35,490 nucleotides of DNA from an uncultured Deinococcales bacterium (GTDB taxonomy: Bacteria > Deinococcota > Deinococci > Deinococcales > JAAFIG01), in assembly GCA_964244895.1 (NCBI GenBank), contig CAXTKV010000028.1:1-35490 (forward strand), in the 5' to 3' direction. Shown here one piece after another: positions 15,738 to 33,891 of the stretch (positions are counted from its first letter, which is position 1; each line of letters opens with the position of its first letter). A program made the translations under genes and the position numbers. Under the pieces are notes generated by a model that saw only the letters and a program-made list of their open reading frames with translations, ran no database searches and was not told the origin of the DNA.

Positions 15738-15795
15738 GAAGACCGTCCAGGACGGCGTTTCTGAAGCTCGAGGATTCGCGTGCTGGACGGTCTTC
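15738..15795. repeat. Palindromic repeat family copy
   Basis: gaagaccgtccaggacg...cgtgctggacggtcttc. Confidence 0.85.
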
Positions 15796-15879
15796 CCGAG
15801 CCGGGGTCGCTCGAGTACCCGACGTGAAGAAGCTGGGCCATCTGCGACCCGCCAGCCGATTCGATCCGAACCCAGGCGA

Positions 15880-15885
15880 TACGAT
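15880..15885 (+). promoter_or_regulatory. -10 box of a probable leaderless mazG transcript
   Basis: TACGAT 6 nt before ATG 15892; no SD sequence. Confidence 0.6.
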
Positions 15886-15891
15886 GAACGC

Positions 15892-16527
15892 ATGGAGAAA
15901 CTCTTGAGCGTCATGCGCCGCCTGCGCGCCCCGGACGGCTGCCCGTGGGATCGGGAACAGACCCACGAAAGCCTCAAACCGTACCTCTTGGAAGAGGCCG
16001 CTGAAGCGGTCGATGCCATCGGCACGGAGGAACCGCTCGAGGTCGCATCCGAACTCGGTGACGTGCTGTTGCAGGTCGCGTTTCACAGCGTGATCGCGGA
16101 AGAAACGGACGCGTTTTCTTACGAATCCGTCGAGAACGCCATCGTCGAAAAGCTGATCCGTCGCCACCCGCACGTTTTTGGCACCGTCAACGTTGCGGAC
16201 AGCCAGGACGTCGTGACCAACTGGCAGGCGATCAAGGCGCAGGAACGCGCGGGCAAACCCGAGAAACACCCCGCAGAGCGCGTCCCGAGGGCGCTCGGGG
16301 CGCTGGCTCGAGCGGCGCAAGTGGCCAAAGCGCTCGAGCTTCCGAAGGGCGCAAAGGCGGATGCGCTCGAGGCCATCAGGCGCGCCACGGACGATGCCGA
16401 TGGCGTTTCAGACGTGCTCGAAGCGGTCGTGGCCTGGGCGCGCGGTGCGGGCATCGACCCGGAAATTGCGCTGCGGGAGCGCGCAGATCGGCGCGTGCGG
16501 GTCGCGGTTTCGGGGGCGAAAGCTTGA
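15892..16527 (+). CDS. mazG: MazG-family nucleoside triphosphate pyrophosphohydrolase
   Basis: LRAPDGCPWDREQTHESL..YLLEEA.E, ELGDVLLQV.FH, KLIRRHPHVF; start re-called to MEKLL. Confidence 0.9.
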   Translation: MEKLLSVMRRLRAPDGCPWDREQTHESLKPYLLEEAAEAVDAIGTEEPLEVASELGDVLLQVAFHSVIAEETDAFSYESVENAIVEKLIRRHPHVFGTVNVADSQDVVTNWQAIKAQERAGKPEKHPAERVPRALGALARAAQVAKALELPKGAKADALEAIRRATDDADGVSDVLEAVVAWARGAGIDPEIALRERADRRVRVAVSGAKA

Positions 16528-17135
16528 AGCTCGAGGACTGGCCGGAACGCCCGGAACGCTGGACGGACGCTTTGAACCTGCGCCAGCGCGCGACCCTGGA
16601 AATTCCAGAATTTCGCCGCGCCGCCGTGCTGGTCGGTTTGACGCTCGAGCCGCAACCGAAAATCCTGCTGACGGTTCGCACCAACGATCTGCCGACGCAC
16701 AAGGGCCAGATCAGCTTCCCCGGCGGCTCGCTCGAACCCGGCGAGGACGCGCTGACGGGTGCGCTGCGCGAAGCCCACGAGGAGGTCGGCCTGGAACGCG
16801 ACCTGGTGCGCCCCATCGGTTTGCTGGACGATGTCTGGACGCCTCAGGGCTTTCTGGTCACGCCGCTCCTGGCCGCGATTTCGGCGCAGCCCCGGCTGGA
16901 ATTAAATGCGCGAGAAGTCAGCGAAGTCTTGTTCGTGCCGATTTCCGATCTGATCGCACTGGAACCTCGTCTCGAGACGCGCCAGCCCGCGCCCGGCATG
17001 CGCTTCCCGAGCTCGGAATCCGGCATCGGCCCGCGCGAGGTGATCCATTACGACTGGCGCGGCTACGACATCTGGGGCATGACCGCCCGCGTGATCCAGG
17101 TGCTTCTGGAACTGACGGAAGCTCGAGCGAGCTGA
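16524..17135 (+). CDS. Nudix hydrolase, CoA pyrophosphatase family
   Basis: LLTVR...L..HKGQISFPGG, Nudix box ALREAHEEVG, IWGMTA; TTG overlaps the mazG stop. Confidence 0.9.
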   Translation: MKLEDWPERPERWTDALNLRQRATLEIPEFRRAAVLVGLTLEPQPKILLTVRTNDLPTHKGQISFPGGSLEPGEDALTGALREAHEEVGLERDLVRPIGLLDDVWTPQGFLVTPLLAAISAQPRLELNAREVSEVLFVPISDLIALEPRLETRQPAPGMRFPSSESGIGPREVIHYDWRGYDIWGMTARVIQVLLELTEARAS

Positions 17136-17173
17136 CGGAGAGTCACCTTCGGGCTGGGTTCTCGAAATATAAG

Positions 17174-17216
17174 GCGTGCCGGACGGCCATTCCACCAGGA
17201 ACACCGTCCAGGACGC
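17174..17216. repeat. Palindromic repeat family copy with arms in swapped order
   Basis: gcgtgccggacgg...gaacaccgtccaggacgc, between convergent genes. Confidence 0.75.
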
Positions 17217-17227
17217 AGTTTTAACAC

Positions 17228-19519
17228 CTAATTCGGGGTCGGCAGCGTCACCGCGAAGCACGCCCCACCGAGGCGCACGTCCGGGCTGTCGTCCAGCCAG
17301 ACGCGCCCGCCGACGCTTTGCGCGATGCGTTTGACGATCGACAACCCGACGCCCGTTCCGGCATCGCCCTGCTTCCAGAAGAGTTGAAACACCTGATCGC
17401 GGTGCTCGGGTGCAATGCCGGGGCCGTTGTCGGCCACGCGCAGACGAACCATGTTCGCACCGTCCGCCGCCCAGTCCATCCAGACGGTCGGCGGCTCGCC
17501 GGGGCGTCCGGCGAAGCGCAGGGCGTTTTCGAGCAGGTTGGAAATCACCTGCTCGAGTTCGCTCCTGACCATTCGCACGACCGGCCAGGTCTGCGGGAAA
17601 TCCAGGCGCGCGCCGCGCACGCGGCGTCGGCTCTCGAGTTCAGCGGTGATGCCAGCCACGATCTCGCCCAAATCCAGGGTTTCGGGCGGATCGCTGGTGC
17701 GTCCGACCCGAGAGACGGTCAAGAGATCGTTCAGCAAGCGGTTCATGCGTTTGACGTTGTCCGCCACGCGCTCCAACGCGAAGCCCGCTTCGGTTGTATC
17801 CCCGCGCGAAACCGCGTCGGCGCTCATGCTGGCCATGCCGGAAATGGACAACAACGGCCCGCGCAGGTCGTGGCTGGCGGTGTACACGAAGGCCTCGAGT
17901 TCCGCGTTGCGCGCACCCAACTCGCGGGTGCGTTCCTCGACGCGTCTTTCCAGGTCTGCTTTGAGTTCGAGTTCGGCGGCGAACAGGCGCGAACGCTCGA
18001 GCGCCAGCGCGCACTGGCGCGCGATGGTCAGCGCGAAACCGCGTTCGGCCTCGTTGAAGTTTCTGGGCGTGTGCGTGGACAGTTCCATCGCGCCCAGCAA
18101 GCGCCCCTGAAGCTCCAAGGGTACGGCGATCCACGCGCCCTCGATCGGCGAGCCGTGCGGGTCGGTCAGGGGCGCGTACTGCTCGTTCCAGTGCGCGGCG
18201 GAATCGATCAATATCGCGCGTTGTTCGCGGGCGGCATCCGTCAAGGGCAGGTGCCGCGCCAGCTCGAGCGAACGCTTTTCGTCCAGCCCGACCTCGGCGT
18301 AACCGACGGCGCGCACCAGTTCCAGCGATTGGCCATCGGCTGAAACCGTATATACCGCTCCCGCGTCCGCCCCGAGCGCCTGAATGGACTGGTAAACGAC
18401 GATCTCGGCCACGTCGGTCGGCAAGAAGGCTTCGGCCAGGGCGGCGGTGACGGTTTGCAGACGGCTCGTGCGGTTGACGGCGGCCTCGGCGGCCTGACGG
18501 GCGGCGCGCTCCTTGGCGTGAATTCCGGCGATCTCGACGCTCATCGCGGCGCGCCGCGCCAGTTCTTCGGCCAGGCGCTCGTCCTGCTCGTCGAAACGCC
18601 GCCCGGATTCGTTGGTGCCCAGGTTCAGCACGCCGATCACGCTCGAGCGTAAACGCAACGGCACGATCAACTGAGAAATCGGTAACTGCGAGATCGCCTG
18701 CTGCACCGTGTTGGCCGCGTTCTCCGGCGCTAAAGCATCCGCGAAGGCTTCCGGCAACGATTTCGGATCGACTTCCATCCGCGCTTCGCGCCGCGAGGCG
18801 TGGTTGATCCGGCGCGTCAGGCCATCGTTGAAAACCTGCCCGATCACGCCCGCCTGCGCTGGATCGATCGTCGGAGATTGCGCTTTCAGGGCCTGCGACG
18901 CCCAGGCCTTGCTCGGGTTGCGGTGGATCGTCTCGACCCGCTCGAGCAACCCCTGCTCGTTGGCCAGATAAATCGAACAGAAATCCGCCAGTTTCGGCAC
19001 GCTCAACCGCGCCAGGTTGCGCAACGTGGTCGAGAGTTCCAGCGATCCGATCAAGGCCTCGCTCGCGTCCGCCAGAAAACTCGCGCCCGCGCGGTAACGG
19101 TGAACGGCGTCCGTCTCGGTGGACATCGCCAACCAGCCCAGCATTCTGCCGTTGGGTTCCAGCACGGGTTCCAGACTCGTGCGAAACCAGGTGGCTTCCT
19201 CGCTCAAGCGCTGCCAGCGGCATTCCAGCGCGACCCCGCTCTGCGCTCGCCTGGCCTCGAGCCAGCGTTCGTTGAAGAGTTCGCGGTCTTCGGGGTGCAG
19301 GAATTCGCCCAGTTCCTCGATCCTCAAGCCCAGCGCGTCCAGCCCGACGTGTTCCGTCCAGCGACGGTTGACGAACCTGACCGTGCCCGAACGATCCGCC
19401 AGCCAGGAAAGCGCGGGCAGCGCCTCGAGCATTCCGCGCAGCATGACTGTCCCCGTGTTGGTTCTTCGCGTCGAATCGACGTTGCCATCGTCGAAGACCG
19501 GATCGGAAATCATTCTCAT
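17228..19519 (-). CDS. Cytoplasmic PAS-GAF-GAF sensor histidine kinase
   Basis: PAS (FVNRRW..LHPEDR), two GAF-like segments (LIVPL..GVLNL; IAVPL..GAMEL), H-box ASHDLRGPL, N-box NLLENA, DNGPGI, GTGVGL; exact start uncertain. Confidence 0.9.
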   Translation of the reverse strand: MRMISDPVFDDGNVDSTRRTNTGTVMLRGMLEALPALSWLADRSGTVRFVNRRWTEHVGLDALGLRIEELGEFLHPEDRELFNERWLEARRAQSGVALECRWQRLSEEATWFRTSLEPVLEPNGRMLGWLAMSTETDAVHRYRAGASFLADASEALIGSLELSTTLRNLARLSVPKLADFCSIYLANEQGLLERVETIHRNPSKAWASQALKAQSPTIDPAQAGVIGQVFNDGLTRRINHASRREARMEVDPKSLPEAFADALAPENAANTVQQAISQLPISQLIVPLRLRSSVIGVLNLGTNESGRRFDEQDERLAEELARRAAMSVEIAGIHAKERAARQAAEAAVNRTSRLQTVTAALAEAFLPTDVAEIVVYQSIQALGADAGAVYTVSADGQSLELVRAVGYAEVGLDEKRSLELARHLPLTDAAREQRAILIDSAAHWNEQYAPLTDPHGSPIEGAWIAVPLELQGRLLGAMELSTHTPRNFNEAERGFALTIARQCALALERSRLFAAELELKADLERRVEERTRELGARNAELEAFVYTASHDLRGPLLSISGMASMSADAVSRGDTTEAGFALERVADNVKRMNRLLNDLLTVSRVGRTSDPPETLDLGEIVAGITAELESRRRVRGARLDFPQTWPVVRMVRSELEQVISNLLENALRFAGRPGEPPTVWMDWAADGANMVRLRVADNGPGIAPEHRDQVFQLFWKQGDAGTGVGLSIVKRIAQSVGGRVWLDDSPDVRLGGACFAVTLPTPN

Positions 19520-19584
19520 TCACCGTAACGCATTTGAGCGCGCCGTGTTGCAAGCTGGGCCACCACCGAACAACGTGATATTGA

Positions 19585-19648
19585 TAAAGAACACCGTCCT
19601 AGACGGTGTTCTTTAAGTCCAAAGAGACGCGTGCGGGACGGTCTTCTC
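19585..19648. repeat. Palindromic repeat family copy (perfect short hairpin plus an extra arm)
   Basis: taaagaacaccgtc-cta-gacggtgttcttta, then cgcgtgcgggacggtcttctc. Confidence 0.9.
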
Positions 19649-20264
19649 AGTTCAGCGTGCGCTGTTCGACGCCCATCAACTCTGAGATGATCTCGAAACG
19701 CTCCAGGAGCGTGCGCGCCTCCAGGACGCGCTGACCCTGAGGGCCGCGCAGACGCAAGTTGGCGGCCACGAATGACGCCTTCAAGACCGGATCTTCCGGC
19801 ACGTCCGCGCGCACGTCACCGAAACGATCCTGAAACTTCACCAGGAAGCGCTCGATCACCTCCTGCGCCAGCCCGCGCACCCAGGTCGGGTTGCTCGGCT
19901 CCAACGGATCGAGCTCCACTTCAGCCACGGAATACGGGTATTTCTGATCGTCCACGCTGAGGATCTTGTAGCGCTCACCGCCGACGACCATGATTTCAGC
20001 GGTTCCGTCCTGGTTGTAACTGACCTGCGTCAAGTGCGCCAACGATCCCACCCGCGCGATCTGGGACTCAGTCCCGGTTGCGTTGGACTGATCGGCCTGA
20101 TCGGATTCGGTTTCGTTCGGCAGCACGCACGGAATCCCGAACGGTTCACCGGACGCCCGCACGCGCCCCAGCAACTCGCGGTAGCGCGGCTCGAACACGT
20201 AAATGGGCAATCCCATGCCCGGAAGGAGCACGATCTCGCCGATCGGAAACAGCGGTAGCTCCAT
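19647..20264 (-). CDS. LON peptidase N-terminal (substrate-binding) domain protein
   Basis: LPLFP...VLLPGM.LPIYVFEPRYREL motif; start re-called to MELPLF, with TAAACT 7 nt upstream (leaderless type). Confidence 0.85.
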   Translation of the reverse strand: MELPLFPIGEIVLLPGMGLPIYVFEPRYRELLGRVRASGEPFGIPCVLPNETESDQADQSNATGTESQIARVGSLAHLTQVSYNQDGTAEIMVVGGERYKILSVDDQKYPYSVAEVELDPLEPSNPTWVRGLAQEVIERFLVKFQDRFGDVRADVPEDPVLKASFVAANLRLRGPQGQRVLEARTLLERFEIISELMGVEQRTLN

Positions 20265-20523
20265 ACCAGACAGTTTACTTGGCGCACCGAGCATGGTCGT
20301 AGTCTCGAGCTACAGAAACCCGGATGACTGGACTACATTCCGAGTGTCATGTCCGTTACTGACCGTGGGCGTAAGCTGCGAAAGCTGTGACCGACGAAAA
20401 AATAGGAAACATTTCGCCATCTCACGTATCGCGTTACACCATCGGTACCGCGCCACAGTGCTACGCTGAGACCGTTCCGGCTCGCGAACACCCCACCCAT
20501 TTCGAGGTCTCGAGGAGGCTTCC

Positions 20524-20910
20524 ATGATCACCATCACCGAATTCGGCGCGCAAAAAGCCCACGAAATCCTGGAAAAAAATGGCAAACAGGACGCTGCCGT
20601 GCGCGTCTTCGTCAAATCTGGCGGTTGCAGCGGCTACAGCTACGGCATGGCGATTGACGACCGCACCCTGGACGGCGATACGTTTTATGAAAGCCACGGC
20701 GTCAAGATTGTCGTGGACAAGATGAGCATCCCCTACTTGCAGGGCGCGAAAGTCGATTTCGTCGAGACCATGCTCGGCGGCGGGTTCAGCATCGTCGAAA
20801 ACCCGAATGCGACCTCGAGTTGCGGTTGCGGCCACAGCTTCCGCACCGACGGCGCGAGCGTGCCCGAGGGCGAAGGCTCGAGCAGTTGCGGCAGCGGCAA
20901 CCAGGCGTAA
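20524..20910 (+). CDS. HesB/IscA/ErpA-family Fe-S cluster carrier
   Basis: [30 protein letters not shown]. Confidence 0.95.
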
Positions 20911-20926
20911 GGTTTGAAGTTTCTCC

Positions 20927-20954
20927 GAGCCCTCGCGCCAGCGGGGGCTTTTTT
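20927..20954 (+). terminator. Intrinsic terminator after the IscA-family gene
   Basis: agccctcgc-gcca-gcgggggct followed by a T run. Confidence 0.85.
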
Positions 20955-20982
20955 GATGCTCGAGATCGAGTCTGTAAACCAA

Positions 20983-21035
20983 AAACACCGTCCAGCACGC
21001 GAATGAATGAAGGCGTGCAGGACGGTGTTCTCGTG
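20983..21035. repeat. Palindromic repeat family copy
   Basis: aaacaccgtccagcacgc...gcgtgcaggacggtgttctcgtg. Confidence 0.9.
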
Positions 21036-21043
21036 CCTCGAGG

Positions 21044-21745
21044 CTAAATTGTTCCGGCGGCGGCGCGATCCAGAAACCAGGTCAGGTTCAGACCGTGAAC
21101 TCGAGCGCCGGGCAGGTTTTCCGGCTCGAGGCGCGCTAAAACATCGACCTTGCCCGATCCCGTGACGATGAATTGCACGTTCCGAGCGGCGTTCAGCACG
21201 CTCAATCCAAGGCTGACGCGCGCCACCTGAGGCTCGAGCGTCGGGCCGGGATAGCTGGTCACGACGGGTTCGCTGGATTCCAGCGCGTCCGAATCGGGGA
21301 ACAACGACGCGGTGTGGCCGTCCGGCCCGAGGCCGAGGTGAATCAGATCGAACTGGGGTGCGCCATCGAAGTAAACCTCGAGTTCGGAGGCGTACTCGGC
21401 TTTTCCGGCGTCCTGCCCGAGCTCGCCCTCGATGCGGTGAACGTTGCCGCGAGGGATGCCGACGCGATCCAAGAGCGCCAGCTTGACCATCTTGAAATTG
21501 GATCGGTCGTCGTCCGATGGCACGCAGCGTTCGTCGCCGAAGAAGACGTGAACGCCGTCCCACGGCACGCCGTCCAACCGTGATATCGCCTCGAGCGCCA
21601 GCTTCGGGGTGCTGCCACCCGCCGCCGCGAACGAGAAGCGTCCCTGCGCACCGATCGCCTCGAGCGCGAGTTCCCGGAAGGATTCCGCGACTGCCGTTGC
21701 CACAGCGTCCGGGTTCTCGAGCACGCGTTTTACAGCGTCCGCCAC
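21044..21745 (-). CDS. pgl: 6-phosphogluconolactonase
   Basis: GGSTP, FFGDERCVP, LGLGPDGHTASLFP; overlaps the zwf end. Confidence 0.95.
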   Translation of the reverse strand: MADAVKRVLENPDAVATAVAESFRELALEAIGAQGRFSFAAAGGSTPKLALEAISRLDGVPWDGVHVFFGDERCVPSDDDRSNFKMVKLALLDRVGIPRGNVHRIEGELGQDAGKAEYASELEVYFDGAPQFDLIHLGLGPDGHTASLFPDSDALESSEPVVTSYPGPTLEPQVARVSLGLSVLNAARNVQFIVTGSGKVDVLARLEPENLPGARVHGLNLTWFLDRAAAGTI

Positions 21746-23193
21746 GAGCGATCCTCTCCGATCAGCGCGTCCGCGCTGGCTGGTCCCTGAGAACCGGACT
21801 CGTAGATTTCTGGTTGAATGTTCGCTTCAATTAATGGTTCGATCCAGGCCCAGCTCGCCTCGACCTCGTCCTCGCGCGGGAACAGGGCGGGGTCACCGAG
21901 CATCGCGTCCAGGATCAATCGTTCGTAGGCCAACGGCCCGACCTGTCCGAAATCCGTGTAGTTGAACTGCAACTCCATGGCGCGCAGCTTGCTTTCCAGA
22001 CCCGGAACCTTCGCGTCGAACCGCAGGTAAATCCCTTCGGTCGGCTGGATGTTCAGCACCAGCTCGTTGGGTTCCTGACCCTGCGGGAACATGTTCAACG
22101 GCTCGCGCTTGAAGCGAATCGCGATCTCGGTGCATTTGCGCGGCATGCGTTTGCCGCTTCGCACATAAAACGGCACGCCTTCCCAGCGCCAGTTCTCGAT
22201 CTCGAGCTTGAGGGCCGCGTAGGTCGGCGTGCTGGAGGTTTGAGACACTTTTTCCTCGTCGCGGTAGGCGGGAACGGTCTTGCCGTCCTGCTCGCCGGAA
22301 CCGTACTGTCCCAGCACCGCGATGCTGCCCGGATCGGTGATCGGTTTGAGCGCTCGGATGACTTTGACTTTCTCGTCGCGCAAAGCGTCGGCCTCTAAGG
22401 GGTGGTAATCCCCGACGCGGCGGCTGACGGGCGGTTCCAGCGCCGTCAGGCACACGAGTTGCATCGCGTGGTTCTGGATGATGTCGCGCAGCACACCCGC
22501 TTCCTCGTAGAAGCCGCCGCGACCCTCGACGCCCAGATTTTCGGAAACCGTGATCTGGACGTGATCGACGTAATTGCGGTTCCATAACGGTTCAAAGATC
22601 GTGTTGGCGAACCGGAGCGCCAGCATGTTCTGCACGGTTTCCTTGCCCAGAAAGTGATCGATCCGGTAAATCTGGGATTCTTTGAAGACCGTGTGCAGCA
22701 AGCCGTTCAAATCCTGCGCGGATTTCAGGTTCGTACCGAACGGTTTTTCAAAGATGATCCGGCTGAAACCCGTCGTCTCGTCGCTCAGGCCGGACTCGCC
22801 CAGGCCGCGCGCGATGCTCGGGAAGGCGCTCGGTGGGACGGAGCAGTAAAAAAGCTTGTTCGGCAGCACGTGCCGATCCAGGATGCGCCCGATGCGCCTG
22901 AAGGATTCCACGTCCGCGAAATCCGCCTGCGCGTACTCGAGCGCAGCCTTGAACTTCTCCCAGACGCCCTCGTCGAGATCACCGATCTCTGTCGATTTCT
23001 CCAGGCTGGTGCGGGCAGATTGCACGATCTGCTCGATGTTCAATTCCTGCCGCGAGACGCCCAGGATCACGAAGCGTTCCGGCATGTTGCCGTCCGCCAG
23101 CATCTTGTAGAGCGCGGGCAGCAACTTGCGGTTGGCCAGATCGCCCGTGATGCCGAAGACCACGATGCCGCACGGTTCCGGTTTGCCGTTCAC
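21730..23193 (-). CDS. zwf: Glucose-6-phosphate 1-dehydrogenase
   Basis: FGITGDLA.RKLLPALY, EKPFG, RIDHFLGKE, RWEGVPFY.RSGKR. Confidence 0.97.
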   Translation of the reverse strand: MNGKPEPCGIVVFGITGDLANRKLLPALYKMLADGNMPERFVILGVSRQELNIEQIVQSARTSLEKSTEIGDLDEGVWEKFKAALEYAQADFADVESFRRIGRILDRHVLPNKLFYCSVPPSAFPSIARGLGESGLSDETTGFSRIIFEKPFGTNLKSAQDLNGLLHTVFKESQIYRIDHFLGKETVQNMLALRFANTIFEPLWNRNYVDHVQITVSENLGVEGRGGFYEEAGVLRDIIQNHAMQLVCLTALEPPVSRRVGDYHPLEADALRDEKVKVIRALKPITDPGSIAVLGQYGSGEQDGKTVPAYRDEEKVSQTSSTPTYAALKLEIENWRWEGVPFYVRSGKRMPRKCTEIAIRFKREPLNMFPQGQEPNELVLNIQPTEGIYLRFDAKVPGLESKLRAMELQFNYTDFGQVGPLAYERLILDAMLGDPALFPREDEVEASWAWIEPLIEANIQPEIYESGSQGPASADALIGEDRSWRTL

Positions 23194-23212
23194 AGCACAC
23201 CCCGAAACCCGT

Positions 23213-23262
23213 AAAGACCGTCCTGGACGGTGTTCAAAGAAATATGTGCTGGACGGTGCTCG
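23213..23262. repeat. Palindromic repeat family copy
   Basis: aaagaccgtcctggacggtgttc...gtgctggacggtgctc. Confidence 0.85.
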
Positions 23263-23399
23263 CTCGAAACGCCGCCCGCGAGATTCGGCTGCGGCTCGTT
23301 GCTGACACTCTCCTCGAATGGAACCGTGGCAAGACTCATGATGCCGAGTCTAACGCCCTGTTGGATTCGGGGTTGGAGCCTGGAGTACGCGATGAATGT

Positions 23400-23442
23400 A
23401 TCGTCCGGGACGCGAGCTGTAAAACCCGTCCCAGACGGTTTT
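23400..23442. repeat. Degenerate palindromic repeat family copy
   Basis: atcgtccgggacgcg...aaaacccgtcccagacggtttt. Confidence 0.6.
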
Positions 23443-23456
23443 GTTGCGTCTCGAGA

Positions 23457-24290
23457 TCAGAAGAATTCGTCCAGCAGACGGTAGAACGCCAGTTTCTCGA
23501 GGTCGGGTTTCACGCCGTACCGCTCGAGAAACCGCGTCGAGTACCCGTTGAACTGCGGGTTCATGTCGCTTTCCAGGCTGCGCGCCATCAGCGCCAAGTC
23601 CTGCCACCGATCCGCGATTCCGGCCCGCCCCACGTCCACGAAACCGACGCTCGAACCGTCCAGGATCGCGTTCGGCGCGCAGGAATCGCCCTGGCAGAAC
23701 ACTGGATCTTCGCTCACGGGTTTGCGCTCGAGCAGTTCCTCGAGCAACTTTTCTGCCGTGTACCCGATGCGTTCCTCGTCCAGATCGTCCAGGTCGATCA
23801 ATCCCTTCTGGACGCGTTCCCTGGCCTGTCTTATCTTGACCTCGAGCCGCTGATCGAACGGGCAATCTTCAATTGGGGTCGAATGGAGGAGACGCAAGCC
23901 ATCCGCGAGCGAGTCCACCACGCGCGGAACCTCGTCTAGAGCCCAATCGCTGGATGCGTCGCGCCCCGGCAGCGCACTCGAGATCAGGTACTCGAGGCCG
24001 TCGTGCTCGAGAAATCGGATGACAGCAGGGACGCTCAAACCTCTGGATCGCATCCACTCGAGCTTCTCGGCTTCGGCGCGCACGGAATGTCCGGGGTCTG
24101 GGTCGTCTGAGACGGACGCGATTTTCAGGAACACCGTCTGGGACAGTGTTTTTTCGGGATCAGGTTTGTGCGTGCTAGACGGTGTTCCCGTGCAACGCCA
24201 CACGCCAGCGCAGGACATGCCGACCGTGACGGGTTCAAAAGAGAAGCCCTCGAGAATGTTCTCGAGGGCTTCTGGAAGATCGGGTTTCAT
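23457..24290 (-). CDS. aph: APH(3')-family aminoglycoside O-phosphotransferase
   Basis: GMS.A.V, VFLK, EAEKLEWM, QGDSCAPN (HGDxxxxN variant), GFVDVGRAGIADRWQDLAL, C-terminal FYRLLDEFF. Confidence 0.88.
   Translation of the reverse strand: MKPDLPEALENILEGFSFEPVTVGMSCAGVWRCTGTPSSTHKPDPEKTLSQTVFLKIASVSDDPDPGHSVRAEAEKLEWMRSRGLSVPAVIRFLEHDGLEYLISSALPGRDASSDWALDEVPRVVDSLADGLRLLHSTPIEDCPFDQRLEVKIRQARERVQKGLIDLDDLDEERIGYTAEKLLEELLERKPVSEDPVFCQGDSCAPNAILDGSSVGFVDVGRAGIADRWQDLALMARSLESDMNPQFNGYSTRFLERYGVKPDLEKLAFYRLLDEFF
24128..24188. repeat. Palindromic repeat family copy embedded in frame in aph
   Basis: ggaacaccgtctgggac...gcgtgctagacggtgttcc encodes residues G35-L55. Confidence 0.85.
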
Positions 24291-25964: not shown

Positions 25965-25999
25965 TCATGTCAGGGAATCTCCCTGACATGAGCATAACA
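25965..25999 (-). promoter_or_regulatory. Probable rny promoter: extended -10 followed by a perfect 27-bp palindrome
   Basis: Minus strand TGtTATGCT runs directly into tcatgtcaggga-N3-tccctgacatga (25965-25991). Confidence 0.55.
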
Positions 26000-26125
26000 C
26001 CCGTATGAGTCAAGACCGTCGTGAGGCGCGCGATTGCGCCTGATGGCGGGCGCTCAAGGGTCACGAACACCCCGCCGCTCACCCCTCGAGAACGCCGTTC
26101 ACGAGTTGGCGCAACCGCCCAACGA

Positions 26126-26161
26126 GAACCCGACCGTCCTCATGGGAAGACGGTCGGGTTC
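26126..26161 (-). terminator. 13-bp hairpin after the small ORF, probable terminator
   Basis: gaacccgaccgtc-N10-gacggtcgggttc, 14 nt downstream of the stop; U tail is weak. Confidence 0.55.
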
Positions 26162-26175
26162 GTGATGACGTTGGC

Positions 26176-26340
26176 TTATTTGTCAGAGGGCGGTGGTGGC
26201 GGGTTGTTCGCGTTGGCCCAGGGCGTCCAACCATCGATCGTGGCAACGACCGGGCTGGTCGAGGCGTGCTTCATCGGTGTCGCGGTGCCTAAAGATCCGA
26301 CGAGCAATGCGGCGAAGAGAATCATGACCAATTTTTTCAC
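26176..26340 (-). CDS. Small secreted peptide precursor, 54 aa (MKKLVMILFAALLVGSLGTATPMKHASTSPVVATIDGWTPWANANNPPPPPSDK)
   Basis: AGGAGG 6 nt before GTG; MKK plus a hydrophobic h-region; TAA followed by a hairpin; shorter than any ORF in the supplied track. Confidence 0.75.
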   Translation of the reverse strand: MKKLVMILFAALLVGSLGTATPMKHASTSPVVATIDGWTPWANANNPPPPPSDK

Positions 26341-26462
26341 GTACAGCCTCCTGGAAAGGAATAACGTTCTCCCACGAAGCTAATCAACGACTCATTGTTA
26401 AATTCTTACAGGCGAGGGTGGCTCGTTGACTCGAGTTCAATGCGTTGATCTCGAGATCGATT

Positions 26463-26522
26463 GAACGACCGTCCGGCACGCGATTTTTGCCGCACGAGAA
26501 CACCGTCCAGGACGGTGTTCTC
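26463..26522. repeat. Palindromic repeat family copy
   Basis: gaacgaccgtccggcacgcg...gagaacaccgtc-cag-gacggtgttctc (perfect hairpin at 26496-26522). Confidence 0.9.
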
Positions 26523-26601
26523 TAAACCCTCCCGGTACGTTCGGGATCGAAGAGATGGAAGGCGCTGTGGTCTCGAGCCAAGATGCTTTCGAGATCCAAC
26601 G

Positions 26602-26630
26602 AAAAAGTGCTACCCGAGGGCAGCACTTTT
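26602..26630 (-). terminator. Intrinsic terminator of cinA-thpR-recA
   Basis: Minus strand aaaagtgctgccc-tc-gggtagcacttttt, 21 nt after the recA stop. Confidence 0.85.
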
Positions 26631-26651
26631 GAAAGCTTCAAGCTCCGGGAA

Positions 26652-27746
<1,095 letters not shown>

Positions 27747-27784
27747 CGTGCGTCTCCTTCGTGGTGGGCGTTCGAGCCGGGGTT

Positions 27785-28621
27785 TTAGAGGCTCTCTGAG
27801 AGGGCGGGTTGGGTCGGGGCGGGTGGAGCTGGGGCGAGTTGGAACTTCTCGAGGATCTTGTACTGCGGGCCGGTCTTGGAGAGGGAACTTTCGACGAGCG
27901 CGAAGTGCGTGACAAGAAACTCCAGGCCAATCACGATCGGCGGGGGTCTGGGCGACGATCCTTTTTTGCGAGCCAGCGTGACGTGCGGTTTGAAGGGTTC
28001 CGCGTCCGCGATCACGTCCTCGAGCCGGTCGCGCAGCACCTCGGCGAGCTGCTTGAATTCTTCGGCTTCCGCTTTGGCGAACCAGACGCGCGGGCTGCCT
28101 TCGTTCGGGAAGAATCCCGTTCCGCGCAGGTGTGCGGTGAAGCCCGGCAGGTCTTTGGAAATTTCGCGCCCGACGGTTTTGAATCGCTCGAGAACGCCGT
28201 TCGGCACGCCACCGATGAATAAAAGCGTGATGTGAAAGTGCGCCGCCTCAACTTTCTTCCACCACTTGCCCACGATCTTCGTCTGCGCGGCCTCGAGCGC
28301 GGGTCTGACGCTCTCCGGCACGAACACGGCGTAGAACAACCGCAAGCCCGGATCGCGCTGGACGGTCTTTTTACGACCCCGAGAAGCCTGTCCTGGACGG
28401 TCTTTCCCTTTTGCAGTGGCAGGATTCGCAGCTTTGCCCGATCTGGCGTCGGTCGGTTTGGGGTTGGTCGGTCTCGAGCCTGCGGGTTTCGGGCTGGCTG
28501 GCTTTGTGCCGTCCGCTCTGGAATCTCGAGCCTTCGCGCCGTCCAATTTGGGTGGCGCTTTCGTCGCCTTCGGCCTCGGGGCTCTGGTGGTCGTGCCGTC
28601 CTTGTTCGGTGGTCGGGTCAC
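27785..28621 (-). CDS. thpR: RNA 2',3'-cyclic phosphodiesterase (2H family, LigT/ThpR) with a long basic N-terminal extension
   Basis: RLFYAV, HITL and HVTL motifs; GTG at 28621 overlaps the cinA TGA; alternative start is TTG at 28345. Confidence 0.88.
28354..28408. repeat. Degenerate palindromic repeat family copy within the thpR 5' region
   Basis: cgcgctggacggtcttttt...cgagaagcctgtcctggacggtctttccc. Confidence 0.65.
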
Positions 28622-29865
28622 GCGCGCCCCGTCCCGAGCAGCGCGCGCCAGAGTTGCCCGAGCGCCAGGAAGGCGGCGCGTTCCTTGAGGGTGCGGCGGT
28701 CGCCGGTCGAACCCATCTCGAAGGCTTTTGAAAAGTGGGGGCCGGCCACGCCGACAAAGAGCGTCCCGACGGGTTTGCCCTCGCTGGTGTCGGGGCCAGC
28801 CACGCCCGTGGTGGACACGCCCCAACTCGATCCGAAGCGCTCGCGCACGGCCTGCGCCATCTCGAGCGCGGTTTCCGGGCTGACCGCGCCGTGCGCCGCG
28901 ATGGTCGCAGGGGTGACGCCCATGCGGGTTTTGGCGTCGTCGGTGTACGTGACCGCGCCGCCCACGACGTACTGGCTGGCGCCGGGAATGTTGGTCAGTT
29001 CATCGGCCACCAGACCGCCCGTCAGGGATTCCATCGCGGCCACGGTCTGGTGTCGCTCGAGCAGCAGCGCTCCGACCACGCCGGGCAGGGTTTCCTCGTC
29101 CGCGCCGTAGATGAAACCAGCCAGGGTTTCCCGGACGGATTGTTCTGCGGCCTCAGCGACGCGTCTGGCATCCTCGAGGCTCGAGCCGGAGGCGGCCACG
29201 CGCACGTGAACGCCGTCGCGCCGGGCGTAGGTGGCGACGCTCGGGTTGCTCGATTGCGTCCAGGCGGCCAGCTTTTCCGCGATGTGGCTCTCGCCGATGG
29301 CGTTGGTGCGCAGCGTCACGGCGTACAGGCTCGAGGTCGGCAGGGGCAGGCGCGGCAGCACCTGATCGCGCCACATGCGGGTCATCTCGCGCGGCGGGCC
29401 GGGCATGGCGACCACGATCTTGCCCAAGAATTCGCCGTGCGGGAATTTCAGGAACCATCCCGGAGCCGTGCCGACCGGGTTGGCGAGCGCCTCGCCGGAG
29501 GGCAGCACCCAGGCTTGTTTGGTGTTGGATTCCGGGAAGCTCCGGCCTCTGGATTCAAAGAAGGCGCGCAACTGCTCGAGGTAAACCTGATCTACCACGG
29601 GTTCTTCACCAACTACGGCGCTGATGGCTTCTCTGGTCAGGTCGTCGTCCGTCGGGCCGAGTCCGCCGCCCAGGATCACCACGTCACTGCGCCCCAGGCC
29701 GCGCCGGATGGCTTCGATGACGCGATCCAGGTTGTCTCCGACGGTGGTTTTCCAGTACAGCGTGACGCCGCGAGACTTCAACTCCTGTGCCAGATACGCG
29801 GCGTTGGAGTCCACGATCTCACCGAGGAGGAGTTCTGTGCCCACACTGATCAGTTCTGCTATCAA
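28618..29865 (-). CDS. cinA: CinA (molybdopterin-binding-like domain plus PncC NMN deamidase)
   Basis: AELISVGTELLLGEIVDSN, GGLGPTDDDLTRE, PGPPREM, ESLTGG, GAVS..TA.EMA, TGVAGP; start re-called to TTG 29865 after GGAGG. Confidence 0.95.
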   Translation of the reverse strand: MIAELISVGTELLLGEIVDSNAAYLAQELKSRGVTLYWKTTVGDNLDRVIEAIRRGLGRSDVVILGGGLGPTDDDLTREAISAVVGEEPVVDQVYLEQLRAFFESRGRSFPESNTKQAWVLPSGEALANPVGTAPGWFLKFPHGEFLGKIVVAMPGPPREMTRMWRDQVLPRLPLPTSSLYAVTLRTNAIGESHIAEKLAAWTQSSNPSVATYARRDGVHVRVAASGSSLEDARRVAEAAEQSVRETLAGFIYGADEETLPGVVGALLLERHQTVAAMESLTGGLVADELTNIPGASQYVVGGAVTYTDDAKTRMGVTPATIAAHGAVSPETALEMAQAVRERFGSSWGVSTTGVAGPDTSEGKPVGTLFVGVAGPHFSKAFEMGSTGDRRTLKERAAFLALGQLWRALLGTGRA

Positions 29866-29870
29866 CGTAA
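29854..29870 (-). promoter_or_regulatory. RDRM-like (DdrO-type) 17-bp operator overlapping the cinA start
   Basis: TTACGTTGATAGCAGAA fits the Deinococcus RDRM pattern; extended -10 TGtTAGAAT at 29883-29891. Confidence 0.75.
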
Positions 29871-30048
29871 TCCCTCCCTTGTATTCTAACACGAGCTAAG
29901 GCTGTTGGTACAACACCCAACTTTACGTCTCCGACGAGCCGCGACGGTCACGCTCAAATTGCACAATCTCGAGCCGGAGAAGATCCTGTTCGAGACGACG
30001 CCAGTGCGCTTTACTTCTCAGAGATCGAAGCCGCCTACCAGATCCAGC

Positions 30049-30112
30049 ATCTCGAGAAAACGCCGTCCGGGACGCAGATATCGGAATGCGTGCTGGACGC
30101 TGTTCTCGAGAT
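30049..30112. repeat. Palindromic repeat family copy with CTCGAG at both ends
   Basis: atCTCGAGaaaacgccgtccgggacgca-N10-tgcgtgctggacgctgttCTCGAGat. Confidence 0.9.
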
Positions 30113-30189
30113 AGGGGTCGAAACTGATCGGCACAGAATTGTGTCACCCGCGATGCCGTGAATCCAGAGTGCGAGGGTAAACTTCTCGT

Positions 30190-30864
30190 GTGCAAGACTT
30201 CGTCACGCGCGATCTCGGGATGGTTCCGTACCGGGACGCCTACCGGATGCAACGCGAGGTTCACACCCGCGTGGCGGCTGGCCTCGAGCCGCCGACGCTG
30301 CTGCTGCTTGAACACCCGCGCGTCGTGACCCACGGACGCAAGGACGACCAGGACACCAACCTGGCCGTCCCACATGCTTTCCTTGAAGCTCAGGGCATCG
30401 AGGTCGTGCCCACCGAACGCGGCGGCACGGTCACGTATCACGGCCCCGGACAGCTCGTGGCCTACGCGATCTTTCCGGTCGGACGGCGCGTCAGGGATTT
30501 CCTGCGCCGCCTCGAGAACGTCCAGATTCGCGCGCTGGAAACGTATGGGATTGAGGCCCGACCCAACCCCGGTTACGCGGGCGTTTACGTCGGTGACGAC
30601 AAGATCGGCAGCATCGGCGTGGCCGTCCAGAAGAACGTCGCGCTGCACGGGCTGGCCTTGAACATCAACACGCACCTGCCGGATTTCGATCTGATCGTGC
30701 CGTGCGGGTTGACGGACACGCGCATGACCAGCCTGGAAAAGCTGCTCGGGCGCGCGGTGGACATGGCGGATGCAAAACGAGAACTCGAGCAGGGCTTCAG
30801 GCAGGAGTTCGAGGATTACAAGTGGCTCGAGGAACTGCGCGGGCTGGAACTGGAGACGACATGA
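30190..30864 (+). CDS. lipB: Lipoyl(octanoyl) transferase
   Basis: [47 protein letters not shown] 6 nt before GTG (leaderless type). Confidence 0.97.
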
Positions 30865-31790
30865 TCAAACCGAGCCGCGAGTACGATTTTCCCGTCGTCA
30901 GGGACGGCGTTCACCGCGATGGTGCGGAGCCCGTGCGGGCGCGCAAACCCGACTGGCTGAAGGTGTCCCTGCCGTCCGGTTTCGGCTACTCGAGCATCAA
31001 GGACATCGTCTCCACGCATGGCCTGGCGACCGTCTGCCAGGAAGCCATGTGCCCCAACATCGCCGAATGCTGGGCGGCGGGTACGGCCACGTTCATGCTG
31101 ATGGGCAGCGTCTGCACGCGCGCCTGCAGGTTCTGCGCGGTCAACACGGGCAACCCGCAGGGACGGCTCGATCCGCTGGAACCCGCGCACATCGCTGAAT
31201 CGGTCGAATTGATGGGCCTGAAGTACGTCGTGCTGACCAGCGTCGATCGGGACGACCTGCCGGACGGCGGCGCGGCGCACTTTGCCCGCACCGTGCGCGC
31301 CATCAAGCAGCGCACGCCACAGGCCAAAGTCGAGGCGCTGACCCCGGATTTCGGCGGGAATCTGGAGAGCGTCACGGAAGTCGTGAATTCCGGCATCGAG
31401 GTCTTCGCGCAGAACATCGAAACCGTCGAACGCCTGACGCACCCCGTGCGCGACCCTCGGGCCGGATACCACCAGACCTTGCGCGTGTTGGCGCACGCCA
31501 AGACCGTGCGGGACGTGTTCACCAAGACCAGCCTGATGCTCGGGCTCGGTGAAACCCGAGATGAGATCATCCAGGCCATGCGCGACCTGCGCGCCGCCGG
31601 TGTGGACATCGTGACGTTTGGCCAGTACCTCCAGCCGACCCGCAACCACTTGCCCGTCGAGCGGTACGTGCCGCCCGCCGAATTCGACGAGATTCGCGTC
31701 CTCGGGCTTGAGATGGGTTTCATGGAAGTCGTGGCCGGGCCGCTGGTGCGTTCCAGCTACAAGGCGGAACAGGCGTTGCAGGGCAAGTAA
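30861..31790 (+). CDS. lipA: Lipoyl synthase
   Basis: [33 protein letters not shown] overlaps the lipB stop. Confidence 0.97.
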
Positions 31791-31802
31791 ACCGATCTTT
31801 CT

Positions 31803-31860
31803 CTCGAGAACACCGTTCAGGACAGCGTTCTCGTTTTGCGTGCTGGACGGTGTTCTCGAG
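31803..31860. repeat. Palindromic repeat family copy with CTCGAG at both ends
   Basis: CTCGAGaacaccgttcaggac...gcgtgctggacggtgttCTCGAG. Confidence 0.92.
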
Positions 31861-31872
31861 TCTCGTTCTTGT

Positions 31873-31940
31873 CCTCCCCTGCCTTGGTAGGGGAGGTGGC
31901 TCGAGCATCGCCGGGTTTGCGGTCCGAGAGGCGGAGGGGT
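31873..31940. repeat. Second-type REP-like element (single copy in this window)
   Basis: cctcccctgccttggtaggggaggtggc...cggaggggt. Confidence 0.5.
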
Positions 31941-32000
31941 CACGACGCTGCGCCCATCGGACACAGTCGCGATCCGCTCGCACGGGTAAGATTGGCGGCG

Positions 32001-33113
32001 ATGACTGTCTCGAGGATTCACTTCCGGGCTTTGCTCGCGCTGCTGGCCGTGTTCGTCCTGAATTTCGCCCCGTCTTCCGCGCAGGTGCAAACCGCCAAGC
32101 CCGACCCGCAGGCTGAAACGACTGCGGATCGGTCGGTGCGCGAGTGGCTGGCTGGCAAGTTCAAGGTGATCAACCCGACCGCGCCGAAAACGGCGGACGA
32201 AAGCACCGCCCGGATGATCGAGGAGAACTTCCTGGTCAATTCCAGCCCGAAAGGGGCGAGCGTCAATTTTGCCTTGCGCAAGGTTCAAGAGAGCAGTCCG
32301 GGGCGCGTCAGCTTCCAGTACCCGCTCTCGAGCGACGACCTGGGTGACGCGAACCTGGTCGTGACGGTCGTGAAATCCGGTTCGGATTGGGCGGTGCGCA
32401 GCATCCGGGTCGCGCCGGACGTGTCGTTGATCCCGAGCGAGGTTTATTCGACGCTGGGCGGTTGGGTGTTCGTGCTGCTGACGGCGCTCCTGGCTTACGG
32501 CGTGCTGGCGCAGACGCTCTGGCGGCGCTGGATGCTGGAATCCTGGGCGGTCATGCGCGCCTTTTTTGGCGTGTACGTCTGGACTAACATCGCGCTGTAC
32601 GGTCTATTCGTGCTGGGTGCGCTGTTCGGGGCGGGCTTTCCGTTGACGGTCAACGTCATCCGTGAACTCGTGTCTGGGGCGTTGTCGCAGGGCGGGCTGG
32701 AAGGCTTGCGCGATGCGAGCGTGCCCAGCGCGGCCTTCGCGATCACGCTCAACAATTTGCGGGCGGGCGTGCTGATCTCGAGCTTCATTCCGGGCAGCCT
32801 GTTCGCCGTGCCCGCGTACCTGCTGTCGTTTTCCACCTTCATCTTTTACGGCGTGGCGCTCTCGCCGATCGGTTTGCCGCCCGCGACCTTCGCGCTGCAC
32901 ATCCCGACGATCATCATCGAGATGCAGTCCTACATTTACGTGGTCGCCGCCAGCGGCGTGATGCTGGCGCGGCTGGTGCGCTCCAGGGTTCCGTTCGGAC
33001 TGGCCTGGCGCGATTACGCCAAGGGCTTGACGGTCGCGATCGCGATTCTGGTCGTGGCTGCCTGGTACGAGGCGTTCGAGATCATGGTGCTGATCCCGCT
33101 GTTCTCGAAGTGA
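32001..33113 (+). CDS. SpoIIM/DUF95-family membrane protein with an N-terminal exported domain
   Basis: Signal peptide, multiple TM helices, ITLNNLRAG, P..IIEMQ, ILVVAAWYE; start re-called to MTVSR. Confidence 0.7.
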   Translation: MTVSRIHFRALLALLAVFVLNFAPSSAQVQTAKPDPQAETTADRSVREWLAGKFKVINPTAPKTADESTARMIEENFLVNSSPKGASVNFALRKVQESSPGRVSFQYPLSSDDLGDANLVVTVVKSGSDWAVRSIRVAPDVSLIPSEVYSTLGGWVFVLLTALLAYGVLAQTLWRRWMLESWAVMRAFFGVYVWTNIALYGLFVLGALFGAGFPLTVNVIRELVSGALSQGGLEGLRDASVPSAAFAITLNNLRAGVLISSFIPGSLFAVPAYLLSFSTFIFYGVALSPIGLPPATFALHIPTIIIEMQSYIYVVAASGVMLARLVRSRVPFGLAWRDYAKGLTVAIAILVVAAWYEAFEIMVLIPLFSK

Positions 33114-33122
33114 TTCGCGCCG

Positions 33123-33170
33123 GAACACCGTCCTGGAGGCGCTCTCGAAAATACGTTTGGGACGGTGTTC
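33123..33170. repeat. Palindromic repeat family copy
   Basis: gaacaccgtcctggaggcg...cgtttgggacggtgttc. Confidence 0.85.
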
Positions 33171-33184
33171 GTGAGGGGTGAACC

Positions 33185-33829
33185 GTGAGCGTGCTGATCG
33201 TCGTGGCGACCAAACCCGAGGCCGAACGCCTGCCGAAGCTGCCGGGATCTCGCGTGGTCGTGAGCGGCATCGGTGCGGTCAACGCGGCGCTGGCGGCGCA
33301 AGCCGCGATCCTCGAGTCCCGCCCGAGCCTGGTGCTCTGCCTCGGCATCGCGGGCGCGTACCCGAATTCTGGCTTGCGGATCGGTGATGTCTGCGTCTCG
33401 AGCGAGATGGTCTTCGCGGGGCTCGGCGCGATGGACGGCAGGCACTTCCTGAATCTCGAGCAGATGGGCTTCTCGTTGCTCGAACATGACGGTGAACGCG
33501 TCTACAACGCGCTCCAAGCCGATTCTCGCTCGAGCGAATTCGCGTCGGTCACGGGGGCGAGACTCGGCCCGATCCTGACCCTGGAAACCGTCACGGGTTC
33601 CGTTGAGATGGCGGCAGAACTCGAGTCCCGCGTTCCCGGTGCGCTGGCGGAGGGCATGGAGGGCGCTGGGGTCGCGCTGGCGGCGGCGCGCTCCGGGTTG
33701 GGTTGCCTGGAAATTCGCGGCATCTCCAACACGGTCGGCCCGAGGGATCGGTCGGGCTGGCGCATCCGCGAGGCGCTCGAGGCGTTGGGAACGGCGCTCG
33801 AGCGCGGCTGGCCCGTGCTGCACGGCTGA
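33185..33829 (+). CDS. mqnB: Futalosine hydrolase
   Basis: GIGAVNAA, GIAGAY, EGMEGAGVA, EIRGISN.VGPRDRSGW.I. Confidence 0.88.
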   Translation: MSVLIVVATKPEAERLPKLPGSRVVVSGIGAVNAALAAQAAILESRPSLVLCLGIAGAYPNSGLRIGDVCVSSEMVFAGLGAMDGRHFLNLEQMGFSLLEHDGERVYNALQADSRSSEFASVTGARLGPILTLETVTGSVEMAAELESRVPGALAEGMEGAGVALAAARSGLGCLEIRGISNTVGPRDRSGWRIREALEALGTALERGWPVLHG

Positions 33830-33835
33830 CCTGCA

Positions 33836-33891
33836 CGAGAACACCGTTCTGGACGCATTTCGTGATTTGCGTCCAGAACGGTGTTCTCGAG
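33836..33891. repeat. Palindromic repeat family copy, perfect 22-bp inverted repeat
   Basis: cgagaacaccgttctggacgca-N10-tgcgtccagaacggtgttctcg(ag), between convergent genes. Confidence 0.95.

Follow-up and report, generated by a model that had tools for sequence, protein, structure and literature searches.

A paired, helically phased palindromic repeat at the gene boundaries of a Deinococcales genome: candidate sites for an IHF-like bending protein

Introduction

A site for integration host factor (IHF) lies beside box R1 in the replication origin of Escherichia coli. Dispersed repeats have been connected with the same protein: a RIB element holds one IHF site between two repetitive extragenic palindromes (REPs), and Boccard and Prentki are said to have reported in 1993 that the E. 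coli RIB/BIME-1 repeats carry IHF sites. In the E. coli CRISPR leader the IHF site extends from -9 to -35 (PMC5224486), and most type I-C leaders are described as having several IHF sites (bioRxiv 2023.05.26.542337). How phyla without IHF fold their CRISPR leaders was called open in 2026 (PMC13748974), and the same gap holds for the origins and mobile elements of such phyla. Here we analyse a 35,490-nt stretch of DNA, hereafter the window (assembly GCA_964244895.1, contig CAXTKV010000028.1, positions 1 to 35,490 of the forward strand), from an uncultured Deinococcales bacterium in which a palindromic repeat recurs between genes. The original prediction, made from the letters alone, had tied this repeat to the hexamer CTCGAG.

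We find that the repeat is built on a 21-bp dyad, follows a ladder of spacings, lies between genes, persists at orthologous sites and shares its core with architectural sites of relatives in which it has not expanded. Because the same palindrome stands in single copy at origins, CRISPR leaders and transposon ends of related families, it is likely to be the binding site of an IHF-like protein. Judged from sequence comparison, the elements are probably paired, phased candidate sites for such a bending protein of the Deinococcota, amplified in one genus.

Anatomy and distribution of the repeat

The source genome (G000; 5.12 Mb in 328 contigs, 91% complete, 62.7% GC, the window being its contig C28) is the sole member of its genus in our sample, in which relatives are grouped as families f1 to f5, its own family f1 having 19 genomes; G and L numbers denote genomes and loci. 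The order Deinococcales agrees with the cinA-ligase-recA operon, with a DdrO-type regulon and with Trueperaceae among the best RecA matches; a RecA comparison with named genomes brought up no close relative. A matrix trained on the 17-nt arm, with CTCGAG excluded, gave 5,788 arm matches of at least 14 bits in this genome and 38 in its reversed sequence. The matches form 2,877 clusters on 308 of the 328 contigs, which agrees with the predicted dispersed, REP/BIME-like family and extends it far beyond the region where it was noticed. The arm 13-mer has 1,727 copies in the source genome and at most 10 in each of 40 relatives, six of which belong to f3. The element had no match in Rfam.

The unit is the dyad AACAC-CGT-CCWGS-ACG-N3-TT, the invariant part of which, CGT-N5-ACG, is called the core below. 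We counted 3,104 elements (1,618 pairs and 1,486 single dyads), which span 113 kb or 2.2% of the genome. In the pairs the dyads are spaced by 25 bp (789), 26 bp (119), 35 bp (519) or 36 bp (191), and the distances between all adjacent dyads form a ladder: 838 at 25 bp, 138 at 26, 39 at 30, 18 at 31, 40 at 34, 568 at 35, 208 at 36, 28 at 41 and 9 at 42, with 27-29, 32-33 and 37-40 bp nearly empty. The main spacings, 25/26 and 35/36 bp, differ by one helical turn. The predicted consensus of two arms around a variable spacer is therefore right for spacer sequence, almost all spacers being different (750 of 788 and 518 of 518 distinct), and wrong for spacer length, since the dyad centres stand 25/26 or 35/36 bp apart. 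Similarly, the predicted short form exists, but it is a complete dyad, usually half of a pair, rather than a separate form. Paired arms are better conserved than single ones (22.4 vs 20.9 bits).

Although 81% of the genome is coding according to our own gene caller, only 33 of the 1,618 pairs lie inside called genes. Elements occupy 465 of 577 convergent gaps, 1,348 of 2,082 tandem gaps and 312 of 585 divergent gaps, and in convergent gaps they lie a median of 9 nt behind the stop codon. Beside genes of foreign codon use the occupancy is reduced (52 of 166, against about 58-60%). Two more distant metagenome contigs (L191 and L242; 55-58% GC, about 49% protein identity or no match) bear one full pair each, from which the family may reach beyond the genus of the source genome.

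The same dyad at CRISPR leaders, origins, IS ends and tRNA trailers

Twelve of 13 cleanly parsed type I-C CRISPR leaders have the core centred at -24 or -23, 11 of them exactly: at -24 in nine f1 leaders (two from one genome), and at -23 in three leaders of f2 and f5, one with a mismatch. A second copy is present at -117/-118 in seven type I-C leaders. This set was drawn from 30 cas2 loci, of which 7 without an array, 4 mis-parsed ones and 6 with other leader types, lacking an exact core at -24, were left out. The background frequency of the core per position is 0.00046 for exact matches and 0.0075 with one mismatch.

At replication origins the core (at most one mismatch) lies 13-14 nt from the DnaA box on the side of the DNA-unwinding element in 12 of 24 parsed loci, and with at most two mismatches in 19 of 24, while four control dyads gave 1 of 96. 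By family, the stricter count is 4/4 in f1, 4/4 in f2, 2/4 in f4, 2/8 in f5 and 0/4 in f3. The origin and leader sites of the source genome itself score 16.5 and 14.9 bits on the matrix trained on the repeat.

Among the ends of IS5-family insertion sequences (ISs), the relaxed core occupies nt 16-26 in all 8 ends of the nearest clade and in 0 of 17 others; at two ends (G009, G013) CTCGAG stands in the same register as inside the repeat element. The core was also seen in three of four further groups of recurring contig ends, which are putative IS ends. Behind tRNA genes, the dyad was found in 7 of 57 unselected trailers against 0, 0 and 0 for three controls (4 exact vs 1 in another count), behind the tRNA 3' end at 13 of 20 motif-selected f3 loci, and as a strict trailer pattern in 25 of 68 f3 genomes (control 0). 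Moreover, the strict 21-mer is in low-copy excess in four relatives (9, 16, 14 and 11 vs 1, 1, 3 and 1).

CRISPR leaders, origins, IS ends and att/tRNA sites each have the dyad at a constant place, and it is at such sites that IHF works in E. coli. Since kin are not independent, the counts from leaders, origins and IS ends, which are related by descent, measure conservation and should not be read as a p-value. The link of the dyad to CRISPR leaders, replication origins, IS ends and tRNA trailers appears to be new: in the literature searched neither repeat nor motif is described, though the leader survey of Santiago-Frangos 2021 or the extended data of bioRxiv 2023.05.26.542337 may already list the motif.

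Further single occurrences were seen. In genome G042, five different tRNAs (L437, L440, L443, L449, L464) are followed directly by the same motif, which overlaps the CCA end. A large array of about 25 tRNAs in the source genome (C151:7941-12301) contains paired dyads, and a similar array is present in G006 (L466). The dyad also lies in an HU promoter (L360, G040), upstream of a gene that by eye resembles tnsA (L388, G019), and among arm-like repeats near tRNA-Lys (L372, G028).

Copies in the window

The prediction of about 13 copies in 18 kb that fill most intergenic gaps was borne out. Each of the 13 coordinates named has at least one dyad of at least 12 bits, the threshold used for window copies with the CTCGAG-free matrix, and 12 of the 14 gaps of at least 30 nt between 15622 and 33901 hold a dyad. 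The copies are as follows.

15739..15794, no strand: paired dyads, 35-bp spacing; CTCGAG inside the spacer
17170..17220, no strand: paired dyads, 30-bp spacing; left dyad weak (12 bits)
19590..19645, no strand: paired dyads, 35-bp spacing; same site and length in the sister strain
20984..21029, no strand: paired dyads, 25-bp spacing; behind a separate terminator-like hairpin at 20927-20950
23214..23260, no strand: paired dyads, 26-bp spacing
23397..23442, no strand: paired dyads, 25-bp spacing; left dyad degenerate (core 23402-23412), below the matrix threshold
24130..24186, no strand: paired dyads, 36-bp spacing
26465..26519, no strand: paired dyads, 34-bp spacing; downstream of recA
28349..28404, no strand: paired dyads, 35-bp spacing; in the gap separating cinA from the gene for the 2'-5' RNA ligase
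30059..30104, no strand: paired dyads, 25-bp spacing; CTCGAG on both sides, at 30051-30056 (out of register by 2 nt) and at 30105-30110
31809..31854, no strand: paired dyads, 25-bp spacing; in-register CTCGAG at both ends (31803-31808 and 31855-31860)
33124..33169, no strand: paired dyads, 25-bp spacing
33840..33885, no strand: paired dyads, 25-bp spacing; perfect 22-bp stem in which the changes are mirrored; left end CACGAG, right end CTCGAG

The last copy, read at 33834, has the unequal ends that had been described for it. Of the two copies thought to have CTCGAG at both ends, the one at 31803 has it in register on both sides, and the one at 30049 has its left hexamer out of register. Matched arm changes were confirmed at 15739 and 33840; genome-wide, mirror covariation holds for the 46-nt form only. 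The left dyad of the 19590 copy is identical to a tRNA-Ala trailer in genome G040. In line with the original prediction, no transposase domain was found in the 19 window open reading frames scanned.

The window also contains a cinA-ligase-recA operon and, at 255-15622, genes for two giant surface proteins of the DUF11-repeat kind (3004 and 2118 aa), which have internal repeats of 468-492 nt. Terminator-like hairpins apart from the elements lie at 15634-15670, where the hairpin is built of CTCGAG pairs, and at 20927-20950. At 31866-31920 there is a member of another repeat family, of the CCTCCCC...GGGGAGG type (39 seed matches genome-wide). A DdrO-operator-like sequence upstream of cinA (29923-29939), with a canonical left half and a poor right half, includes a CGT-N5-ACG core.

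Age of the copies and strand signals

We scored 112 metagenome and viral loci, of which 14 were flagged and 7 proved to be sister-species orthologues; a first metagenome search pattern had given no match and a second gave 103 stretches, and 9 viral matches were dismissed as single chance matches. In the sister-species contigs (flanks 70-90% identical) the element lies in the same gap in 7 of 7 cases, at offsets of 0, 0, -9, 14, 24, -52 and 102 nt from the projected place; arm identity in this comparison is biased because both sides were selected by motif. The empty orthologous site with a single CTCGAG, to be expected if the element duplicated its target, was not seen: none of 8 orthologous comparisons had an empty site. 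One close sister copy was read base by base against the 19590 copy (run X1). It has the same length, with 9 of 18 spacer bases and 7 of 38 arm bases changed and no changes in the 83 nt and 76 nt at the ends of the stretch. Only 2 identical pairs were found among 788.

No signal of a transcribed strand was detected. G-U mismatches are not in excess over A-C mismatches (307/310, and 259/252 near stops), element orientation is unbiased (109/128), and T-runs, which an intrinsic terminator would have on its transcribed side, number 174 sense and 182 antisense of 972. Orthologous persistence, the scarcity of identical pairs and the lack of strand signals together suggest old copies that were kept as double-stranded DNA.

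CTCGAG and the repeat

The genome has 21,883 CTCGAG sites, 9.8-fold above a second-order model. In line with the prediction, the hexamer is commoner beside the arms than in the background (12.8% of ends vs 0.61% per intergenic position, 21-fold), and it also occurs at fixed inner registers of the element. As a terminus of the consensus it did not hold up, since only 414 of the 3,234 outer ends of paired elements (12.8%) have it; 1,139 of 1,616 pairs have it at neither end, unlike an element set within an iterated word as in SDR5/HIP1. Copies with CTCGAG at both ends number 13 of 1,616 where 37.1 are expected under independence (p=3.6e-7), and this depletion argues that there was no target-site duplication. 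Arms without the exact hexamer keep no trace of CT (T 0.24 at -5 and C 0.33 at -6, equal to background), and in 3 of 7 orthologous pairs with sister species one copy has the outer word and its partner has not. The sister strain has CTCGAG in the spacer of the 19590 copy, where the source genome has none. Only 1,317 of the 21,883 sites (6%) lie within 8 nt of an element, and the other 18 members of f1, with at most 10 copies of the arm 13-mer each, have the hexamer at the same density (4.6-6.8 per kb). For these reasons neither duplication nor seeding of CTCGAG by the repeat is supported. The model of a non-autonomous element that targets and duplicates the hexamer, or spreads it through the genome, could draw on the 21-fold enrichment, the fixed inner registers and the insertion of SDR5 into HIP1 in Nostocaceae (PMC4390886, PMC5861425), and in the light of these results its probability is close to nil.

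What survives of the proposed coupling between a REP-like family and a HIP-like motif is the enrichment beside the arms, with its direction reversed, in that a family-wide bias acts on the arm flank. On this account the hexamer came to the element ends afterwards, laid over the purine-rich arm flank by the bias, and can change; we liken this to the biased process proposed for HIP1 accumulation (PMC4390886). When the flank reads CGAG, CT stands in front of it at a frequency of 0.55 at arms and 0.47 elsewhere, and a hand estimate (independent flank frequencies times an intergenic excess of about 20) predicts 9-10% where 12.8% was found. Two causes of the both-end depletion were rejected: short-range repulsion of CTCGAG, as the pair correlation is flat at these distances, and nearness to genes, as both ends carry the word equally. 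Avoidance of long perfect palindromes could explain it. No enzyme acting on CTCGAG was identified in the source genome, whose two matches to Eco57I-type methyltransferases are a type I HsdM and another at the end of a contig. Taken together, the results remove the repeat itself, an attractive but mistaken candidate, as an explanation for the excess of CTCGAG.

Genome-wide, 11,450 of 15,616 coding CTCGAG sites lie in the Leu-Glu frame. The hexamer is also contained in CRISPR repeats of this family (L395 at G000:C36, L396-L400, L406, L408, L411, L413, L417).

Candidate binding protein and proposed mechanism

The source genome has no IHF: its three HU-family proteins fall below all IHF cut-offs, actinobacterial IHF (PF22525) is absent, and the dyad is found neither with the IHF consensus WATCAANNNNTTR nor with ihfA/ihfB genes. 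HU is universal in the sample, with VKPGT/VRPGT at the arm tip where IHF has RNPKT. The two CG steps of the dyad are 9 bp apart, and 9 bp is the spacing of the kinks made by HU and IHF. The chances that the binder is the phylum's HU are about even; two divergent HU types in genomes that have the motif in common speak against it.

A host dimer would bind each dyad as double-stranded DNA and bend it, each element thus forming a phased double bend at a gene boundary. Selection on helical phase would keep the spacing of the pairs, and the pairs would shape DNA at gene boundaries, as reported for IHF-bound RIB elements. Less firmly, the pairs probably spread long ago as a small mobile doublet that the host then kept. 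Such a doublet might have arisen when two IS ends were fused at the CTCGAG word found in the same register at some IS5 ends, a proposal more doubtful than not.

A second small unit bears on the dyad. It is 37-41 bp long and self-nesting, starts with GCG and ends with AAGAA, and has 95 copies in the source genome (for example C174 from 9240, C91 and C8; in relatives L337-L356), none in the decoy and none in the window. It inserts without duplication. In the source genome 55 of 69 loci have it in the dyad, where it separates A from C within ACG; elsewhere it targets REPs, other repeats and transposase genes. It is present in all 19 members of f1 and in none of 42 other genomes, a range that coincides with the CTCGAG excess. 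In a broader proposal, to which we give slightly less than an even chance, CGT-N5-ACG with its A/T flanks would be the recognition code of a phylum-wide IHF substitute, perhaps HU, for initiation, CRISPR capture, transposition and integration; about 3,000 phased double sites would fold the chromosome of one genus gene by gene, and the 39-bp mobile unit would insert at the kinked step.

Several findings weigh against the interpretation of the dyad as an architectural site. The type I-C leader of G025 lacks the core although the origin of this genome has it. The strict origin pattern, which was tried before any other, was negative, the result becoming positive only once the pattern was relaxed; 8 of 32 origin loci could not be parsed; and the f3 origins read CGC-N5-GCG in the same gap, with 2-3 mismatches (L516, L518, L520, L435), a symmetric variant that is possibly a specificity shift. 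The tRNA-trailer copies are also perfect terminator-like hairpins, and a looser 21-mer shows no excess over its control in many f1 genomes (4 vs 30 in G004). Extra HU copies do not track the expansion, three being present in the source genome but also in G001, G005 and G016. In the sister copy of run X1, one core base (T at 19597) has changed. The 46-nt form shows mirror covariation (102 vs 46 at position 10, 152 vs 97 at position 12), and its real folds are more stable than chimeric ones (-26.3 vs -24.7 kcal/mol, from a sample of 300 of 788); a hairpin would account for this no less well than template switching, which would itself be a sufficient cause. In the 56-nt form and inside individual dyads there is little or no covariation.

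Alternative explanations

The closest competitor is a selfish origin, in which a Y1 (RAYT-type) or DDE transposase would have mobilised an inverted doublet of the REPIN or miniature inverted-repeat transposable element (MITE) kind in the form of a single-stranded hairpin. The enzyme would since have been lost or be missing from the assembly, the resemblance to origin and leader sites would come only from descent from IS ends, and the copies would have no host function. We regard this as unlikely. In its favour are doublets at a fixed spacing that are better conserved than singlets, compensatory changes across the hairpin of the 46-nt form, the 3' position (all REPIN-like, PMC3116915), and the IS5 ends of G009 and G013 with both dyad and CTCGAG in register. 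The RAYT gene that the prediction invited us to look for was not found (0 PF01797 matches in the 91% complete assembly), nor were IS110 or small GIY-YIG nuclease genes. Six IS4/5 and IS630 matches (5 and 1) have dyads within 1.8 kb in two cases, none as terminal repeats; where elements border long uncalled gaps, these proved to contain ordinary genes only, and no dense repeat array around a gene was found. A missing gene is weak evidence in a 91% complete assembly, since a GTAG REP family, separate from the dyad repeat, persists in the same genome (84 seed matches) although no Y1 gene was detected. The GTAG family is polymorphic in comparison with a sister contig. Among Y1 loci from relatives, 3 of 30 had weak matrix matches (12-14 bits) and several had GTAG REPs. 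Against a selfish doublet, there is no invariant 5' guide tetranucleotide (the commonest outer tetramer, CGAG, is at 753 of 3,234 ends), the same target word does not flank both sides as in a MITE, identical pairs are rare and empty sites were not seen, the four-rung ladder, with +1 lengths exceeding -1, is hard to derive from two founders, and the 56-nt form shows little or no covariation. The IS5 clade has the inner dyad in common with the repeat and not the terminal repeat. CGTC REPs, including dRS3, have an unpaired terminal CGTC, an 8-9-bp stem, a 4-5-nt loop and a CCA tail (PMC3733652), whereas here CGTC lies inside the dyad, the loop has 3 nt and there is no tail.

Two further possibilities give the copies a host role other than bending. 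The dyad could be bound by an XRE-type helix-turn-helix regulator with DdrO-like geometry, the pairs serving as cooperative double operators or titration sites. The inner core does have the geometry of the DdrO site (consensus TATGYYHTTARCRKA, PMC8533742), which also precedes transposase genes in D. radiodurans (PMC8533742), and the source genome has 20 HTH_3 matches. The same genome, however, has a separate canonical DdrO-type motif, which precedes ruvB-, gyrA-, gyrB-, uvrA-, uvrB-, uvrD-, recG-, recQ- and ssb-like genes (named from N-terminal sequences) and whose outer TT/AA positions are missing from the repeat; the elements are densest in convergent gaps, where there is no promoter, and the places that the dyad takes in origins, in leaders and at IS ends belong to architectural factors. 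We consider such a regulator improbable; DdrI was rejected as a binder, its site TGTGA-N6-TCACA not matching the dyad. Less probable again is a role as RNA, in which terminators of the tRNA type would have spread to terminate transcription in both directions or to stabilise 3' ends as hairpins. The 3'-proximal position, the stability with which 7 window copies fold (z -2.9 to -12.2) and the perfect dyad followed by T-runs that forms the trailer of many tRNAs would suit it; the absence of G-U excess and of orientation and T-run bias, the occupancy of 312 of 585 divergent gaps, the separate terminator-like hairpins upstream of two window copies and the lack of covariation inside the dyad would not.

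Comparison with known systems

Paired sites for a bending protein thus remain the preferred explanation. If it is true, a genome gives 2% of its DNA to phased architectural sites. The repeat offers a precise candidate site, thousands of natural variants and a spacing rule, and is suited to work in Deinococcus and Thermus.

In CRISPR leaders, at IS ends and at att sites (PMC5224486, bioRxiv 2023.05.26.542337, PMC6606824), and likewise in oriC, the dyad is found where IHF has its sites, and in the leader it has an equal distance from the first repeat and a distal second site. This candidate site differs in being symmetric, GC-rich and of another sequence, in a host without an IHF gene. Like E. 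coli RIB/BIME-1, the element is dispersed between genes, close to the 3' limits of transcription units, and would attract a host protein that bends DNA, but it consists itself of two candidate sites, is palindromic, is unrelated to WATCAANNNNTTR and has about 3,000 loci. With the RDRM/DdrO operator of Deinococcus (PMC8533742) it shares an inner core of two triplets five bases apart; it lacks the outer TT/AA, has a GC-rich centre and shows no tie to DNA-repair promoters. REPINs and the GTAG and CGTC REPs associated with RAYT (PMC3116915, PMC3733652, PMC3479197) are likewise inverted doublets with a conserved spacer length, extragenic, 3'-biased and with compensatory changes in one form. The present repeat has no invariant GTAG, unpaired CGTC tag, CCA tail or Y1 gene found, and is made of two symmetric dyads instead of tagged hairpins, on a ladder of helical steps and beside a separate GTAG family. 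Finally, as with HIP1/SDR5 of cyanobacteria (PMC4390886, PMC5861425), a hyper-abundant palindromic word coexists with small repeats, among them the self-nesting 37-41-bp unit that inserts without duplication; here, in contrast, this mobile unit targets the dyad and not the hexamer, and the main repeat neither splits nor duplicates CTCGAG.

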